Positions 15,597 to 44,700 of a stretch of DNA of 64,000 nucleotides are shown one piece after another. How positions within the stretch are numbered: the stretch's first letter is position 1; each line of letters begins with the position of its first letter. The notes under the pieces were generated by a model. That model was not told where the DNA came from. It did no database searches and worked only from the letters and a program-made list of their open reading frames with translations. Both the position numbers and the translations under genes were made by a program. This stretch comes from Escherichia coli (GTDB lineage Bacteria > Pseudomonadota > Gammaproteobacteria > Enterobacterales > Enterobacteriaceae), in assembly GCF_041886205.1 (NCBI RefSeq), contig NZ_CP169029.1; one strand, given 5' to 3'.

Positions 15597-15790
15597 TTGT
15601 CTGTCCGGCAGTGCGTTTCGTTATGTTTTGTTTTAGAGATGTAAAGAAATAGCATGGCAAAAATCCGAAGTATAGCGACTTATTTGCGCATTAATGCCGT
15701 CGTAACCGGCGACTAACGAATCAACTGTTAAAGAAAAGTAAATTCAGCTAAGTTGATTGCTTACAAAAGATGAAATTCAGAGGCGGTAGA

Positions 15791-16690
15791 ATGTCGCGAA
15801 AAGATGGGGTGTTGGCGCTACTGGTAGTGGTCGTATGGGGGCTAAATTTTGTGGTCATCAAAGTGGGGCTTCATAACATGCCACCGCTGATGCTGGCCGG
15901 TTTGCGCTTTATGCTGGTCGCTTTTCCGGCTATCTTTTTTGTCGCACGACCGAAAGTACCACTGAATTTGCTGCTGGGGTATGGATTAACCATCAGTTTT
16001 GCGCAGTTTGCCTTTCTGTTCTGCGCCATTAATTTTGGTATGCCTGCTGGACTGGCTTCGCTGGTGTTACAGGCACAGGCGTTTTTTACTATCGTGCTTG
16101 GCGCGTTTACTTTCGGGGAGCGCCTGCATGGCAAACAATTGGCGGGGATCGCCTTAGCGATTTTTAGCGTACTGGTGTTAATCGAAGATAGTCTGAACGG
16201 TCAGCATGTGGCGATGCTCGGCTTTATGTTGACCCTGGCGGCAGCATTTAGTTGGGCGTGTGGCAACATCTTCAATAAAAAGATCATGTCGCACTCAACG
16301 CGTCCGGCGGTGATGTCGCTGGTAATCTGGAGCGCATTAATCCCAATCATTCCCTTCTTTGTTGCCTCGCTGATTCTCGATGGTTCCGCAACCATGATTC
16401 ACAGTCTGGTTACTATCGATATGACCACCATTTTGTCTCTGATGTATCTGGCGTTTGTGGCGACAATTGTTGGTTATGGGATCTGGGGAACACTACTTGG
16501 ACGCTATGAAACCTGGCGGGTTGCACCGTTATCGTTACTGGTGCCCGTAGTCGGACTGGCAAGTGCGGCACTATTGTTGGATGAACGCTTAACGGGTCTA
16601 CAATTTTTCGGTGCGGTGCTCATTATGACCGGGCTGTATATCAATGTATTTGGCTTGCGGTGGCGTAAAGCGGTAAAGGTGGGAAGTTAA
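15791..16690 (+). CDS. eamA: Cysteine/O-acetylserine exporter, EamA/DMT family (299 aa)
   Basis: Start at ATG 15791 (MSRKDGVLALLVV); duplicated EamA domains. Confidence 0.9.
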   Translation: MSRKDGVLALLVVVVWGLNFVVIKVGLHNMPPLMLAGLRFMLVAFPAIFFVARPKVPLNLLLGYGLTISFAQFAFLFCAINFGMPAGLASLVLQAQAFFTIVLGAFTFGERLHGKQLAGIALAIFSVLVLIEDSLNGQHVAMLGFMLTLAAAFSWACGNIFNKKIMSHSTRPAVMSLVIWSALIPIIPFFVASLILDGSATMIHSLVTIDMTTILSLMYLAFVATIVGYGIWGTLLGRYETWRVAPLSLLVPVVGLASAALLLDERLTGLQFFGAVLIMTGLYINVFGLRWRKAVKVGS

Positions 16691-16720: not shown

Positions 16721-16939
16721 CTACATAGCGTGTTGATTATAATAGGGCACGCCGAGCGCATCCGACTTATCACTGCCAGTACCCATGTGATTTAAATCAA
16801 ACGGTGGTTGTTCCTGCGATGGGGGAACAACCACGACATTGGCACAAGAAGTAACAACTGGCTGCGTGGTTTGTTCCGCAACGCCCTGCGCGGAAAAGAG
16901 AATAAGCGCAGCTGCTATTGCGGATAAAAGTGGTTTCAT
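16721..16939 (-). CDS. marB: MarB periplasmic protein (72 aa)
   Basis: Signal peptide MKPLLSAIAAALILFSAQGVA; last gene of marRAB. Confidence 0.9.
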   Translation of the reverse strand: MKPLLSAIAAALILFSAQGVAEQTTQPVVTSCANVVVVPPSQEQPPFDLNHMGTGSDKSDALGVPYYNQHAM

Positions 16940-16970
16940 GATTGCCTCAGTGACGTTGTCACGTTATCAA

Positions 16971-17354
16971 CTAGCTGTTGTAATGATTTAATGGATGTAA
17001 AAAGCGCGATTCGCCCTGCATATTGGTCATCCGGTATTTATGCGGCGGAACATCAAAGTAATTTTTGAAGGTTCGGGTCAGAGTTTGTTGCGACTCGAAG
17101 CCATATCGTTCTGCCAGATAGAGTATCGGCTCGTTACTTTCCTTCAGCTTTTGCGCGATTTCCGTCATCTTACGGCTGCGGATGTATTGGCCTAATGAAT
17201 GACCGGTTTCTTTTTTAAACATCCGTTGCAGGTGCCATTTGGAGTAACCCGAACGCTCTGACACTTTCTCCAGTGACAGTGGCGATTCCAGGTTGTCCTC
17301 GATCCAGTCCAAAATGCTATGAATGGTAATAGCGTCAGTATTGCGTCTGGACAT
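16971..17354 (-). CDS. marA: MarA AraC/XylS-family activator (127 aa)
   Basis: [51 protein letters not shown]... reads as MarA; ORF-track upstream extension rejected. Confidence 0.95.
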
Positions 17355-17373
17355 CGTCATACCTCTTTTTTGT

Positions 17374-17808
17374 TTACGGCAGGACTTTCTTAAGCAAATG
17401 CTCAAGTGTTGCCACTTCGTCCGCCGTCAGGTTTTTTGTTAATTCTTGATGCAGGTCCTGGCCAACTAATTGATGGCATTGTTCGCATATTGCCGCGCCG
17501 CTGGTGGTAAGTTTTACCAGTACGCCGCGCTTATCATTCGGGTTCGGCAACCGTTCAACCCAGCCTTTACAGACCAGGCGATCCAGCATACGGGTCAGTG
17601 CTCCCAGGTCGACCGACAACACTTTTTTCAGTTCAACCGGAGTAATACACGCCGCGCAGCGGATAGAGCAGAGCACCTTAAACTGTGCCGCAGTAATATC
17701 CAGCGGAGACAGATACTCGTTAAGCAGACGATCTTTCTTCTGATTAACCATATGGATTAAGCGACCCAATGGAATAATTTCATTGAACAGATCGCTGGTA
17801 CTTTTCAC
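17374..17808 (-). CDS. marR: MarR repressor (144 aa, GTG start)
   Basis: [49 protein letters not shown]...; start codon CAC on plus = GTG. Confidence 0.95.
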
Positions 17809-17925
17809 ATTAGTTGCCCTGGCAAGTAATTAGTTGCAGGGGATAATATTGCCCAGGCAAGTATAAGTCAAATGAATGAATGACCGATGCCACGTTTTGC
17901 TAAATCGGTTCAAGTTTTGGTCAAT
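17809..17925 (-). promoter_or_regulatory. marO: marRAB promoter with MarR operator sites (TACTTGCCTGGGCAA / TACTTGCCAGGGCAA) and marbox (GATTTAGCAAAACGTGGCATCGGTCA)
   Basis: Reverse complement of 17809-17925 reads TTGACTTATACTTGCCTGGGCAATATTATCCCCTGCAACTAATTACTTGCCAGGGCAAC and, upstream, the marbox sequence. Confidence 0.85.
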
Positions 17926-18027
17926 GCGATGCAAGGCAATGATACTAATCTGTATGGGAACGGAAAATATAATCTTTGCGTTATTATAACTGATAAGTTA
18001 TATTCAAGTATAAACAGGGGGGAAGCT

Positions 18028-18348
18028 ATGTATGAGCTACTATTTCACCCCGAAGCGGAAAGCGAAATTTATGACCTCGAACCTATTATGCAAGCAAAGG
18101 TACTTAAGGGACTAGAAAAGCTGGAAGCGAAAGGGCCGGAACTCCGCTATCCAGATACAGGCATTATCCAGGATGGTTTGTTTGAGTTGCGCGTAGGAAG
18201 AAAAGACATTTCAAGAACATTTTTTGCTTACGCTAAAGGTCGAAAGATCTATATTTTAAGAACGTTTATTAAGAAGACCCCTAAGACTCCGAAGGCCGAA
18301 ATTGCTCTGGCGACGTCAAGATGGGAGGAACTGAAAGATGGCTGTTAA
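18028..18348 (+). CDS. Type II toxin, RelE/ParE superfamily (Gp49/HigB-like, 106 aa)
   Basis: ATG at 18028 preceded by AGGGGGGAAG Shine-Dalgarno; about 106 aa basic protein (MYELLFHPEAESEIYDLEP...RTFIKKTPKTPKAEIALA...); 11-nt overlap with the downstream HTH gene. Confidence 0.8.
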   Translation: MYELLFHPEAESEIYDLEPIMQAKVLKGLEKLEAKGPELRYPDTGIIQDGLFELRVGRKDISRTFFAYAKGRKIYILRTFIKKTPKTPKAEIALATSRWEELKDGC

Positions 18349-18622
18349 AGGTATCAAGTTTTCTGAAGTCAAAGCAAAAGCACTTGCCAATCCTGACGTT
18401 AAAAAGGCTTACGATGAAGCCACGCAGGAAGAAGAACTCCGTGCAGTCCTCATTGAAATGAAGAAGAGAGCCGGATTAACCAGCACCGAGATTGCAGCTC
18501 GCATGGGAGTTAGCCAACCAGCTGTCAGCCGTCTTGAGAGGAATGTATCAAGTGCCAGCCTTACAACGTTACAACGTTATGCTGCAGCTTGTGGTATGCA
18601 CATTAAGTTGTCTCTTCAATAA
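18338..18622 (+). CDS. XRE-family HTH antitoxin (HigA-like, 94 aa)
   Basis: HTH LTSTEIAARMGVSQPAVSRLERN; translationally coupled to the upstream toxin. Confidence 0.8.
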   Translation: MAVKGIKFSEVKAKALANPDVKKAYDEATQEEELRAVLIEMKKRAGLTSTEIAARMGVSQPAVSRLERNVSSASLTTLQRYAAACGMHIKLSLQ

Positions 18623-18742
18623 AATCGACACACTCGGATAGCTACCAGCCACAGGTCTGGAGTCGACTCTCAGCGAACCCAGACCTTTTCATTTCGAACA
18701 ACACAATTGCCTTAATTGAGGCATACAGGATAACAACCACCA

Positions 18743-19408
18743 ATGTTAGATTTGTTTAAAGCAATTGGCCTGGGGCTGGTGGTGTTGCTGCCGTTAGCTA
18801 ACCCATTAACAACTGTCGCGCTATTTCTTGGTCTGGCAGGCAACATGAACAGTGCTGAACGTAATCGTCAGTCGTTGATGGCCTCGGTGTACGTATTTGC
18901 CATCATGATGGTGGCGTATTACGCCGGGCAACTGGTGATGGATACATTTGGCATTTCGATTCCCGGTCTGCGAATTGCAGGCGGCTTAATCGTCGCGTTT
19001 ATCGGTTTTCGGATGCTCTTTCCGCAACAGAAAGCGATTGATTCACCGGAGGCGAAAAGCAAGTCGGAAGAGCTGGAAGATGAACCCAGTGCCAATATTG
19101 CTTTTGTACCACTGGCAATGCCAAGTACCGCCGGTCCGGGAACCATTGCGATGATTATTAGCTCGGCGTCCACAGTGCGTCAGAGTTCAACCTTCGCTGA
19201 TTGGGTACTGATGGTTGCGCCGCCGCTGATCTTTTTCCTGGTGGCGGTTATTTTGTGGGGAAGTCTACGCAGCTCTGGCGCAATTATGCGGCTGGTGGGC
19301 AAGGGTGGCATTGAAGCGATCTCCCGCCTGATGGGGTTCCTGCTGGTATGTATGGGTGTGCAGTTTATTATTAACGGCATCCTGGAAATCATTAAAACGT
19401 ACCATTAA
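18743..19408 (+). CDS. marC: MarC/UPF0056 inner membrane protein (221 aa)
   Basis: [33 protein letters not shown]...; multi-TM. Confidence 0.9.
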
Positions 19409-41798: not shown

Positions 41799-44700
41799 AT
41801 GAATAGAATCTATCGCGTGATATGGAATTGCACCCTACAGGTATTTCAGGTCTGCTCGGAATTAACTCGCAGGGTAGGTAAAAAATCGACGGTTAATTTG
41901 CGTAAATCCTCTGGACTGACAACGAAATTCAGTAGATTGACGCTGGGTGTTTTGCTGGCACTAAGCGGTTCAGCGTCTGGTGCGAGTCTGGAAGTTGATA
42001 ATGATCAGATTACCAATATTGATACTGATGTTGCTTATGATGCCTACCTGGTTGGCTGGTATGGCACTGGAGTGCTTAATATTTTGGCTGGCGGTAATGC
42101 CTCCTTAACCACGATTACTACCAGCGTCATTGGTGGTAATGAGAACTCGAAGGGCACCGTTAATGTTTTGGGTGGCACCTGGCGATTGTATGATAGCGGA
42201 AATAATGCAAGGCCTTTAAATGTGGGTCAATCCGGAACGGGGACGCTGAATATTAAACAGAAAGGTCACGTTGATGGAGGATATTTAAGGCTAGGTTCCT
42301 CGACAGGAGGCGTCGGGACGGTCAATGTTGAGGGAGAGGACTCTGTTCTGACGACCGAATTATTCGAAATAGGGAGCTATGGCACAGGCTCATTAAATAT
42401 TACAGATAAGGGTTACGTCACGAGTTCAATAGTCGCCATTTTAGGCTATCAGGCGGGCGGTAATGGCCAGGTTGTCGTGGAAAAGGGCGGCGAGTGGCTA
42501 ATAAAAAATAACGATTCCTCAATTGAATTTCAAATTGGTAATCAAGGAACGGGGGAAGCGACTATTCGCGGGGGTGGGCTGATTACGGCTGAAAACACGA
42601 TTATCGGTGGCAATGCCACCGGTATCGGAACCCTGAATGTGCAGGATCAAGACTCTGTCATCACGGTACGCAGACTCTATAATGGATATTTCGGCAATGG
42701 CACAGTCAATATTTCCAATAATGGACTGATTAATAACAAAGAATATTCATTGGTGGGCGTTCAGGACGGTTCCCACGGTGTCATCAACGTGACCGATAAA
42801 GGGCATTGGAATTTCCTCGGAACAGGCGAAGCTTTCCGCTATATCTATATCGGTGATGCTGGCGACGGTGAACTTAATGTCTCGAGTGAAGGCAAAGTAG
42901 ATTCGGGAATTATCACTGCGGGGATGAAAGAAACAGGCACAGGCAACATTACTGTTAAGGATAAGAACTCCGTTATCACTAATCTCGGAACTAATCTTGG
43001 TTATGACGGCCACGGCGAAATGAATATCAGTAATGAGGGGCTTGTTGTCAGCAACGGAGGAAGTTCACTCGGTTATGGAGAAACCGGCGTCGGGAATGTC
43101 AGCATCACCACGGGGGGGATGTGGGAGGTCAATAAGAATGTCTATACCACCATTGGTGTTGCGGGTGTCGGAAACCTCAATATTAGCGATGGCGGTAAGT
43201 TTGTATCGCAAAATATTACTTTTTTGGGCGATAAAGCAAGCGGTATCGGCACACTGAACCTGATGGATGCGACATCATCGTTCGATACTGTGGGTATCAA
43301 TGTCGGTAATTTTGGTAGCGGTATCGTAAATGTCAGTAATGGTGCCACCCTTAATTCAACGGGCTATGGATTTATCGGAGGAAATGCCTCCGGTAAGGGG
43401 ATAGTTAATATTTCAACGGATAGTCTCTGGAATTTAAAGACATCATCTACTAACGCCCAATTGCTACAGGTCGGTGTATTAGGCACGGGTAAACTGAATA
43501 TTACCACCGGAGGTATAGTTAAAGCGCGTGATACACAGATAGCTCTCAATGACAAAAGTAAGGGCGACGTGAGGGTGGATGGGCAGAACTCTCTGCTTGA
43601 AACATTCAATATGAACGTAGGGACGACTGGCACGGGTACGTTAACCCTGACGAATAACGGCACGCTGAATGTTGAGGGTGGCGAAGTTTACTTAGGTGTT
43701 TTTGAACCTGCTGTAGGAACGCTAAACATTGGTGCTGCTCACGGTGAGGCGGCGGCAGATGCCGGGTTTATCACCAACGCGACGAAAGTAGAGTTTGGTT
43801 CTGGCGAAGGTGTTTTTGTCTTTAATCATACCAATAACAGTGATACCGGCTACCAGGTCGATATGCTGATTACGGGTGACGATAAAGACGGAAAAGTGAT
43901 ACATGATGCAGGCCATACGGTGTTCAATGCAGGGAATACTTATAGCGGTAAAACGCTGGTCAATGACGGCCTCCTGACCATTGCGTCACATACGGCAGAT
44001 GGGGTAACGGGCATGGGTTCGAGTGAAGTAACCATTGCAAGCCCCGGTACGCTCGACATTCTCGCATCAACGAACAGTGCAGGAGATTACACGCTGACCA
44101 ATGCGCTCAAAGGCGATGGCTTGATGCGAGTTCAGCTGTCATCCTCCGACAAGATGTTTGGCTTTACCCATGCAACAGGGGCTGAATTCGCCGGTGTTGC
44201 CCAACTGAAAGACAGTACCTTCACTCTGGAACGCGACAACACCGCTGCGCTTACTCACGCGATGTTGCAGTCTGACATTGAAAATACCACATCGGTAAAC
44301 GTGGGAGAGCAATCCATTGGTGGACTGGCCATGAATGGCGGTACGCTCATTTTCGATACGGATATTCCTGCTGCGACGCTTGCAGAGGGATATATCAGCG
44401 TCGATACGCTGGTTGTCGGCGCGGGTGACTACACCTGGAAAGGCCGTAACTATCAGGTAAACGGGACGGGCGACGTGCTTATCGACGTGCCTAAACCGTG
44501 GAATGATCCCATGGCGAATAACCCTCTGACGACGCTCAATTTGCTGGAACACGATGATAGCCATGTCGGCGTTCAACTGGTGAAGGCGCAAACGGTTATT
44601 GGGTCGGGTGGTTCATTAACGTTACGTGATTTACAGGGCAACGAGGTGGAAGCGGACAAAACGTTACATATTGCGCAAAACGGAACGGTGGTCGCCGAGG

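Follow-up and report, generated by a model that had tools for sequence, protein, structure and literature searches.

The window analysed here is a stretch of Escherichia coli DNA 64,000 nucleotides long that contains the mar locus. The genes marB (16721-16939), marA (16971-17354) and marR (17374-17808, with its start at 17808) lie on the minus strand, and an intact marC gene (18743-19408) lies on the plus strand. The start codons of marR and marC are 934 bp apart, versus 211 bp in the common allele of strain EC11, and a K-12 strain matched this common allele along the whole length of the query. The spacing of about 200 bp that a preliminary description of this DNA had given for K-12 was thus correct. 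The enlarged interval carries two genes on the plus strand, 5' of marC. The first (18028-18348) encodes a toxin of 106 amino acids of the Gp49/Tad type (HigB-like), belonging to the RelE/ParE superfamily, and the second (18338-18622) an antitoxin of 94 amino acids with an Xre-type helix-turn-helix (HTH), the two genes overlapping by 11 nucleotides. A two-gene operon between marR and marC had been reported in the preliminary description, and all the sequence features described there were found in place.

The limits of the additional DNA were defined by pairwise alignment of the window with the allele of strain EC11, which lacks the toxin-antitoxin (TA) genes. The accessory segment spans 787 bp (17938-18724) and takes the place of 63 bp of the K-12-type marR-marC intergenic region. 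Its left junction falls after position 17937, where the shared sequence ends in GATGCAAGGC, and its right junction at 18725, where the shared sequence resumes with ACAGGATAACAACCACCAATG. In the common allele the alignment places between these two junctions 63 bp that are unrelated to the segment and show no similarity to its ends. Since 787 bp stand in the place of 63 bp, the event is a replacement rather than a clean insertion, so that the insertion proposed earlier holds in that extra DNA absent from K-12 is present, and fails in that this DNA was not simply added. The alignment with the TA-less allele showed no target-site duplication at the junctions, and a search for inverted repeats found no terminal ones at the segment ends. 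The segment contains the two genes only, with no transposase, integrase or other mobility gene, gave no match to phage DNA, and does not qualify as the insertion of a mobile element (insertion sequence, transposon, integron cassette or prophage). The 5-bp sequence AGGCA occurs at both ends (17934-17938 and 18719-18723) and was considered as a target duplication; this was rejected, since in the empty allele the junctions are separated by 63 bp of unrelated sequence. The module had also been called AT-rich, and its GC content is indeed lower than that of the window (43.3% vs 49.0%), but the contrast is modest, as 10.7% of the windows of equal size are as low or lower.

A program-made list of open reading frames extends the toxin frame back to an ATG at 17887. 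The homologues of the toxin are all about 106 amino acids long and begin with MYEL or MFEL, which places the start at 18028 instead. This ATG is preceded by ACAGGGGGGAAGCT, in agreement with the strong ribosome binding site noted before; the Shine-Dalgarno-like AGGGGGG read from the sequence occupies 18016-18022 on the plus strand, 5 nucleotides upstream of the ATG. The GGGG core of this element is invariant in a cross-species alignment, and its run of G comprises six residues in the window vs five in strains REL606 and ECONIH4.

The toxin matched the Pfam family Gp49 (PF05973; DUF891/COG4679) with an E value of 1.5e-22 over model positions 2-89 of 90, so that the HMM search bore out its assignment, and the same domain was present in all 120 toxin homologues listed. 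Scanning Pfam with E values up to 10 gave nothing besides Gp49 and no match to the classical HigB family, and the NCBIfam scan of the toxin gave no match to a specific model. The protein is identical to WP_000273128.1 of REL606 and ECONIH4, which RefSeq labels 'type II toxin-antitoxin system RelE/ParE family toxin'. A profile built from 46 toxin homologues matched HigB of Streptococcus pneumoniae (6AF3, E value 1.7e-4) and, weakly, HigB1 of Mycobacterium tuberculosis. The AF2 model of the toxin (pLDDT 87) has a predicted C-terminal helix at residues 89-105, and Foldseek aligned it with S. pneumoniae HigB (6AF3/6AF4) at a TM score of 0.81 and with M. tuberculosis HigB1 (7AWK) at 0.80. RelE, Vibrio cholerae HigB2, YoeB and ParE were structural matches with lower scores, and among classical HigB structures the TM score reached only about 0.59 for 5IFG and 5JAA and about 0.6 for HigB of E. 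coli and Shigella. The model thus displays a predicted RelE/ParE-superfamily fold with the long C-terminal helix that is typical of Gp49-like toxins. The lack of a Pfam HigB match and the TM score of about 0.6 together place the toxin outside the classical Proteus/K-12 HigB family.

Sequence identity of the toxin to its closest solved relatives is 18-24%. For the HigB toxin of the M. tuberculosis TAC system (HigB-TAC), residues E66, R68, F93, K95 and K99 have been proposed as catalytic, and substitution of N73 strongly reduced toxicity (PMC9098466). In a profile alignment of low identity, E53, R55, F80, K82 and K86 of the toxin align with these five proposed catalytic residues. R55 and K82 show no variation among the 46 homologues, and E53 and F80 almost none. 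The likewise invariant R63 is probably the counterpart of HigB-TAC R77, the sequence alignment being shifted there by 1-3 residues, and no clear counterpart of N73 was seen in this offset, low-identity alignment.

In the antitoxin, an N-terminal region of about 35 amino acids precedes a C-terminal HTH_3 domain (Pfam, residues 40-89, E value 1.1e-11). The earlier reading as an Xre-HTH antitoxin gene with an 11-nucleotide overlap was therefore right. Sequence matches in the PDB were M. tuberculosis HigA3 (4e-7) and HigA2 and S. pneumoniae HigA, the last being the partner chain of the best structural match of the toxin. The protein is identical to WP_000268704.1, annotated in RefSeq as 'helix-turn-helix domain-containing protein', and NCBIfam gave weak matches to generic HTH models only. 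The toxin gene comes first and the Xre-HTH antitoxin gene second, as in most of the related loci; in most of 26 such loci from other species the antitoxin gene lies directly 3' of the toxin gene, and the overlapping gene pair recurs. Given the Gp49 and HTH_3 matches and this recurrence in other species, the two frames are not chance open reading frames. Domain matches and homologous loci thus agree with the toxin-first pair of a Gp49/HigB-like toxin and an Xre-HTH antitoxin that had been proposed from the sequence.

Upstream of the toxin gene two abutting 18-bp palindromes form a candidate operator (17968-18002, plus strand, inverted repeat I1), the first being TATAAT-N6-GTTATT (17968-17985) and the second TATAAC-N6-GTTATA (17985-18002). 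Across 12 upstream regions from 8 genera the half-sites are invariant or nearly so and the spacer of the second palindrome varies freely; the half-sites are also untouched by the differences that separate the window from the REL606 allele. A TA promoter is predicted on the plus strand at 17976-18004, as read from the sequence, with the -35 element TTGCGT (17976-17981), a 17-nucleotide spacer and the -10 element TATATT (17999-18004), and an equivalent TTGAGT-17-TATATT or TATAAT is kept in the cross-species alignment of the promoter region. The consensus promoter scan did not call this promoter, because its -35 element matches the consensus at only 3 of 6 bases. Both palindromes overlap the predicted -35 and -10 elements, and such palindromes over a conserved promoter suggest the layout expected for autorepression by an HTH antitoxin dimer; we infer that the antitoxin binds this candidate operator.

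The hairpin described earlier after the antitoxin gene is present on the plus strand at 18653-18686 (inverted repeat I3). It is terminator-like, with an 8-bp outer stem formed by GGUCUGGA and CCCAGACC and followed by UUUUCAUUU, the whole element reaching to 18695. Its folding energy is -16.9 kcal/mol (z = -3.0) and the U-tract on its 3' side is short; a consensus terminator scan did not call it. The 3' part of the segment including the hairpin (18625-18724) showed no homology in plasmids or in any foreign relative, and Rfam gave no match between 17700 and 18900 at a permissive threshold. A translational switch formed by 12 nucleotides of complementarity between the 3' end of the segment (18704-18715) and early marC codons (18756-18767) was also considered. 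It was dropped: the minimum-energy fold does not contain the pairing, the region is no more stably folded than shuffled sequences (z -0.75), and by a rough estimate about 0.1 such 12-nucleotide pairs are expected by chance.

The spread of the cassette was determined across 5426 complete E. coli genomes. The 787-bp segment occurs in 372 of them (about 7%), in one copy each, always on the chromosome and always between marR and marC. These carriers include REL606, derivatives of BL21 and T7 Express, in which RefSeq annotates the genes. The 63-bp allele was found in 5035 of the 5426 genomes, including K-12, O157:H7 strains, E24377A, UTI89 and NC101. The absence from K-12 that had been proposed is therefore real, K-12 having the 63-bp allele and about 93% of the complete E. 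coli genomes lacking the cassette, which is neither rare nor strain-specific and is annotated by RefSeq in hundreds of genomes. Among toxin matches in one representative genome per bacterial species, no other Escherichia species was found, so the 63-bp allele is likely ancestral and the cassette acquired. The opposite polarity, in which the TA-bearing allele would be ancestral and the 63-bp allele a deletion, was rejected because the 63-bp allele predominates in the 5426 genomes, no other Escherichia species appeared among these matches and the 63 bp do not resemble the ends of the 787-bp segment.

Between the window and REL606, 3 of the 606 positions of the TA coding sequence differ, and these differences are synonymous since both proteins are identical. 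When the two allele groups of E. coli are compared over the whole segment, 12 positions differ, again with identical toxin and antitoxin. In the flanks, marC has 12 differences from REL606 in 666 positions and marR has 7 in 435; the 221-amino-acid product of marC is identical to REL606 MarC, so that its 12 nucleotide differences are all synonymous. It follows that the cassette is intact and has diverged somewhat less than the DNA on either side. That flanking DNA is mosaic among strains with and without the cassette, and the same marO haplotype occurs with it (the window and ECONIH4) and without it (HS and ATCC 8739). The shared haplotype and the mosaics, though small in number, would fit spread or loss of the cassette through homologous recombination of the flanks.

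Outside E. coli, DNA homology is limited to about 17964 to about 18624, starting in every foreign relative precisely at the first palindrome and stopping at the antitoxin stop codon. Chromosomal relatives with 77-80% nucleotide identity occur in Pectobacterium, Dickeya, Citrobacter, Winslowiella, Prodigiosinella and Serratia. Of the mobile relatives found, the closest was a pair of a RelE/ParE-family toxin and an HTH protein (WP_000273115.1 / WP_000974937.1) on IncX1 plasmids from Salmonella Kentucky and from E. fergusonii. It resembles the cassette across promoter, toxin and antitoxin (76.7% nucleotide identity, 85% and 88% amino acid identity) and has identical operator palindromes, and it differs in being plasmid-borne with other flanks; its divergence is too great for a direct donor. 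No mar genes were found beside the foreign relatives, whether plasmid or chromosomal. The existence of plasmid and foreign chromosomal relatives argues for horizontal acquisition.

The toxin is 42% identical to gp49 of phage N15 (E value 4e-31) and the antitoxin 45% identical to N15 gp48 (E value 1e-27), both over the full length. N15 gp49 gave its name to the Pfam Gp49 family, and PMC2701414 and PMC5906591 cite gp49/gp48 as a validated Tad-Ata system, with reference to Dziewit et al. 2007. The Tad-Ata examples given in the two papers are N15 gp49/gp48, tad-ata from pAMI2, a plasmid found in Paracoccus aminophilus, and SXT, and PMC5906591 states that the toxin gene comes first in all studied Gp49-domain TA modules. 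The cassette shares with Tad-Ata a Gp49/DUF891 (COG4679) toxin, an Xre-HTH antitoxin, the toxin-first order and two genes of about 100 codons each. It differs in its location, the Tad-Ata examples residing on a plasmid, a prophage or an integrative and conjugative element whereas the cassette is chromosomal and lies between core genes, and in its gene overlap of 11 nucleotides vs 1 nucleotide in N15.

Among systems of solved structure, S. pneumoniae HigBA (6AF3/6AF4) and M. tuberculosis HigB1/TAC (7AWK, 7NBU) have a RelE-type fold with a long C-terminal helix, and reach a TM score of about 0.8 to the toxin model. The ELR and F-x-K-x3-K-T-P-K motifs of the toxin align with proposed catalytic residues of the solved HigB toxins, and the antitoxin is similar to HigA of S. 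pneumoniae and to HigA2 and HigA3 of M. tuberculosis. The identity of 18-24% nevertheless sets these Gp49-like HigB proteins apart from the toxin, and the M. tuberculosis TAC system is tripartite whereas the cassette has no gene for a SecB-like chaperone. Classical HigBA modules (Proteus vulgaris Rts1, K-12 higBA and V. cholerae higBA2) are likewise toxin-first and combine a RelE-superfamily toxin with an Xre-HTH antitoxin, and by analogy ribosome-dependent mRNA cleavage and operator autoregulation would be expected of the cassette. Their HigB proteins belong to another toxin subfamily, however, as the cassette toxin is only Gp49 by Pfam and its TM score to them about 0.59-0.6, and the cassette is not a sequence-level paralogue of K-12 higBA.

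The cassette is very probably a horizontally acquired type II TA system of the Tad-Ata/Gp49 branch of HigBA, forming an accessory marR-marC allele in about 7% of the complete E. coli genomes. Reasoning from the homologues, the operon would be transcribed from its own sigma-70 promoter, and the 11-nucleotide overlap would probably couple the translation of toxin and antitoxin. A dimer of the C-terminal Xre-HTH domain of the antitoxin would bind the two TATAAC-N6-GTTATA palindromes over the -35 and -10 elements and repress the operon, and the N-terminal region of the antitoxin would wrap around the toxin and neutralise it. Upon loss or degradation of the antitoxin, free toxin would enter the ribosomal A site and cleave mRNA, resulting in translation arrest. 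Acquisition would have replaced 63 bp of the marC leader, without touching the marRAB promoter, the marbox, the sites of MarR or the region of the Fis site. The cassette is a real but ordinary, uncharacterised member of the Tad-Ata/Gp49 family, which has been on record since 2007; we found no paper on this particular locus.

The control elements of marRAB lie outside the replaced segment. The promoter scan placed the marRAB promoter on the minus strand, with the -10 element at 17843-17848 and the -35 element at 17866-17871, and what we take to be the Fis-site region adjoins the marbox within 17843-17927. Two MarR-type palindromes (TTGCC-N-GGCAA) lie to the left of the junction, as in the TA-less alleles, and the control stretch 17843-17927 departs from these alleles only by a 1-bp deletion after 17880. 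The marbox core CCACGTTTTGCTAAA (17890-17904) is the MarA site listed for marC<>marR in PMC5684230. The left junction lies 33 bp past this core, which confirms the closeness to the marbox pointed out earlier; relative to the inferred marRAB start it is about 100 bp upstream.

Such closeness raises the question of whether the cassette is wired into the mar response, a marO promoter induced by salicylate or antibiotics transcribing the toxin and antitoxin genes and, if the hairpin leaks, marC as well, so that the toxin would be tied to drug stress. A consensus-like promoter (CTGGCA-17-GATAAT, 17819-17847) lies on the plus strand upstream of the cassette, in both alleles. In a scan of the window and of the TA-less allele it was the only consensus-like plus-strand promoter of the shared control region, and it overlaps the region of the MarR sites. 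It is a candidate for the MarR-repressed marC promoter, given that MarR binding in the marC-marRAB spacer represses transcription in both directions (PMC5934670). We found no paper mapping the marC promoter. In the interval from the hairpin to marC, neither a consensus scan nor reading of the sequence revealed a convincing promoter; the short U-tract may let polymerase pass, and the intact marC, with 12 synonymous and no nonsynonymous differences, is probably still expressed. Should 17819-17847 be the marC promoter, the cassette would form part of the marC leader, could be transcribed under MarR control, and would leave marC reliant on read-through of the hairpin. The geometry thus allows coupling, but any such coupling is probably not strong. 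The cassette possesses a conserved predicted promoter of its own with a candidate operator, and read-through would yield toxin and antitoxin together; in type II TA systems more transcription alone need not free active toxin. Its relatives, moreover, reside in unrelated contexts in other species, which makes the mar location look incidental. We therefore consider it unlikely that the cassette belongs to the mar response in this way, and slightly less likely still that it sits within the marC transcription unit such that derepression of MarR by salicylate or antibiotics co-induces a HigB-like mRNA interferase and leaves marC dependent on read-through. The hipBA genes lie at 47424-49030, about 29 kb away, and had been joined with the cassette in the preliminary description as two tolerance-linked TA loci around mar. 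This distance from marR is presumably about that on the K-12 map, so that the proximity looks coincidental and the pairing of the two loci is not retained.

Two further readings concern the function of the pair rather than its control. It might act mainly in abortive infection, as an anti-phage module and not as an addiction or stress module, since prophages and plasmids commonly carry members of the family (N15, phiKO2 and Stx phages among them) and PHROG families match both proteins. PADLOC returned a weak partial match to NsnC (E value 4.8e-6, 50 residues) together with HTH_VI, but these partial NsnC and generic HTH matches do not amount to a defined defence system and no PADLOC model covers the pair as one; the cassette, besides, stands alone between core genes, outside any defence island, so that a mainly anti-phage role appears quite improbable. 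Alternatively, as chromosomal TA modules often decay, the cassette might be domesticated, with a catalytically inactive toxin and an HTH protein that serves merely as a local transcription factor. Some Gp49-type toxins do lack toxicity, M. tuberculosis HigB2 and HigB3 being of this type yet not toxic when expressed (PMC9098466). Here, however, most of the proposed catalytic positions are kept and conserved, both frames are full length, with products identical in sequence between the diverged alleles that were compared, and the architecture of operator and overlap is conserved across genera. We regard decay as very unlikely, and retain the reading of the cassette as an acquired TA system of the Tad-Ata/Gp49 branch.

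The finding bears on strains in common use, as E. coli B derivatives (BL21, REL606 and the long-term evolution lines) have a mar control region that differs from that of K-12 by an additional RelE-superfamily TA pair and a changed marC leader. Reporter constructs or regulatory models for marO and marC derived from K-12 may therefore not transfer to carriers of the cassette. If its transcription were controlled by MarR, the cassette would be a natural example of a TA module under an antibiotic-stress regulon, and if it were part of the marC unit, carriers would gain a mar-linked route to translation arrest or drug tolerance that is absent in K-12. Otherwise, it would be one more intergenic, horizontally acquired TA cassette of a long-known family.

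The toxin-antitoxin coding sequence has diverged less than marC or marR between the window and REL606, a strain that also carries the cassette (the 787-bp segment between marR and marC holding both genes), with 3 of 606 positions differing in the toxin-antitoxin coding sequence, 12 of 666 in marC and 7 of 435 in marR. This lower divergence, together with cassette flanks that are mosaics among the strains compared, suggests that recombination has taken place in the region (16721-19408).

A second polymorphic stretch lies to the left of marB (window 15770-16690) and was also seen at the loci of other genomes designated L002, L005 and L032. There, eamA adjoins marB in the window, ECONIH4, REL606 and ATCC 8739, and a 6-phospho-beta-glucosidase gene is found in EC11, HS and UPEC957C, the last of which additionally has a carbohydrate porin gene. 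In this one strain (locus L005, 4204-4291) a deletion takes out the 5' part of marC and some of the intergenic region, and its marC is annotated as a pseudogene. Neither the 63-bp allele, which lacks the cassette, nor the 787-bp allele is intact in about 19 of the 5426 complete E. coli genomes surveyed.

A 441-bp low-coverage contig of an Alkalicoccobacillus porphyridii assembly (NZ_VLXZ01000054.1, locus L016) shows 99.3% identity to the E. coli cassette, and probably represents contamination from a cassette-bearing E. coli. The PLSDB record NZ_CP134663.1 (H71), which bears the cassette at 98.2% identity, is a 4.9-Mb E. coli sequence, evidently chromosomal and misplaced in the plasmid collection; it therefore provides no evidence for a plasmid-borne E. 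coli allele. Elsewhere in the window, a gene of the ECSE_1600 autotransporter family (41799-47219, 1806 aa) lies directly upstream of hipBA (47424-49030).

Two single-nucleotide differences fall within control sequences. The G run in the ribosome-binding site of the toxin gene (18017-18022) counts 6 G in the window versus 5 in REL606 and ECONIH4, and every genome match among the matches listed spans 784 bp of the 785-bp query; the extra G reflects either a sequencing error or a change in homopolymer length specific to this strain. In region 17872-17889, which separates the -35 hexamer of marRAB from the marbox, one T is missing after position 17880 (GAATGAA-TGACC in the window versus GAATGAATTGACC), leaving a spacer of 18 bp from the -35 hexamer to the marbox core, compared with 19 bp without the deletion; REL606 has the longer spacer. 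The exact 86-bp allele with the deletion occurs in 156 of the 5426 genomes, among them cassette carriers (ECONIH4) as well as strains lacking the cassette (HS, ATCC 8739). The shorter spacer could affect activation by MarA, SoxS or Rob.
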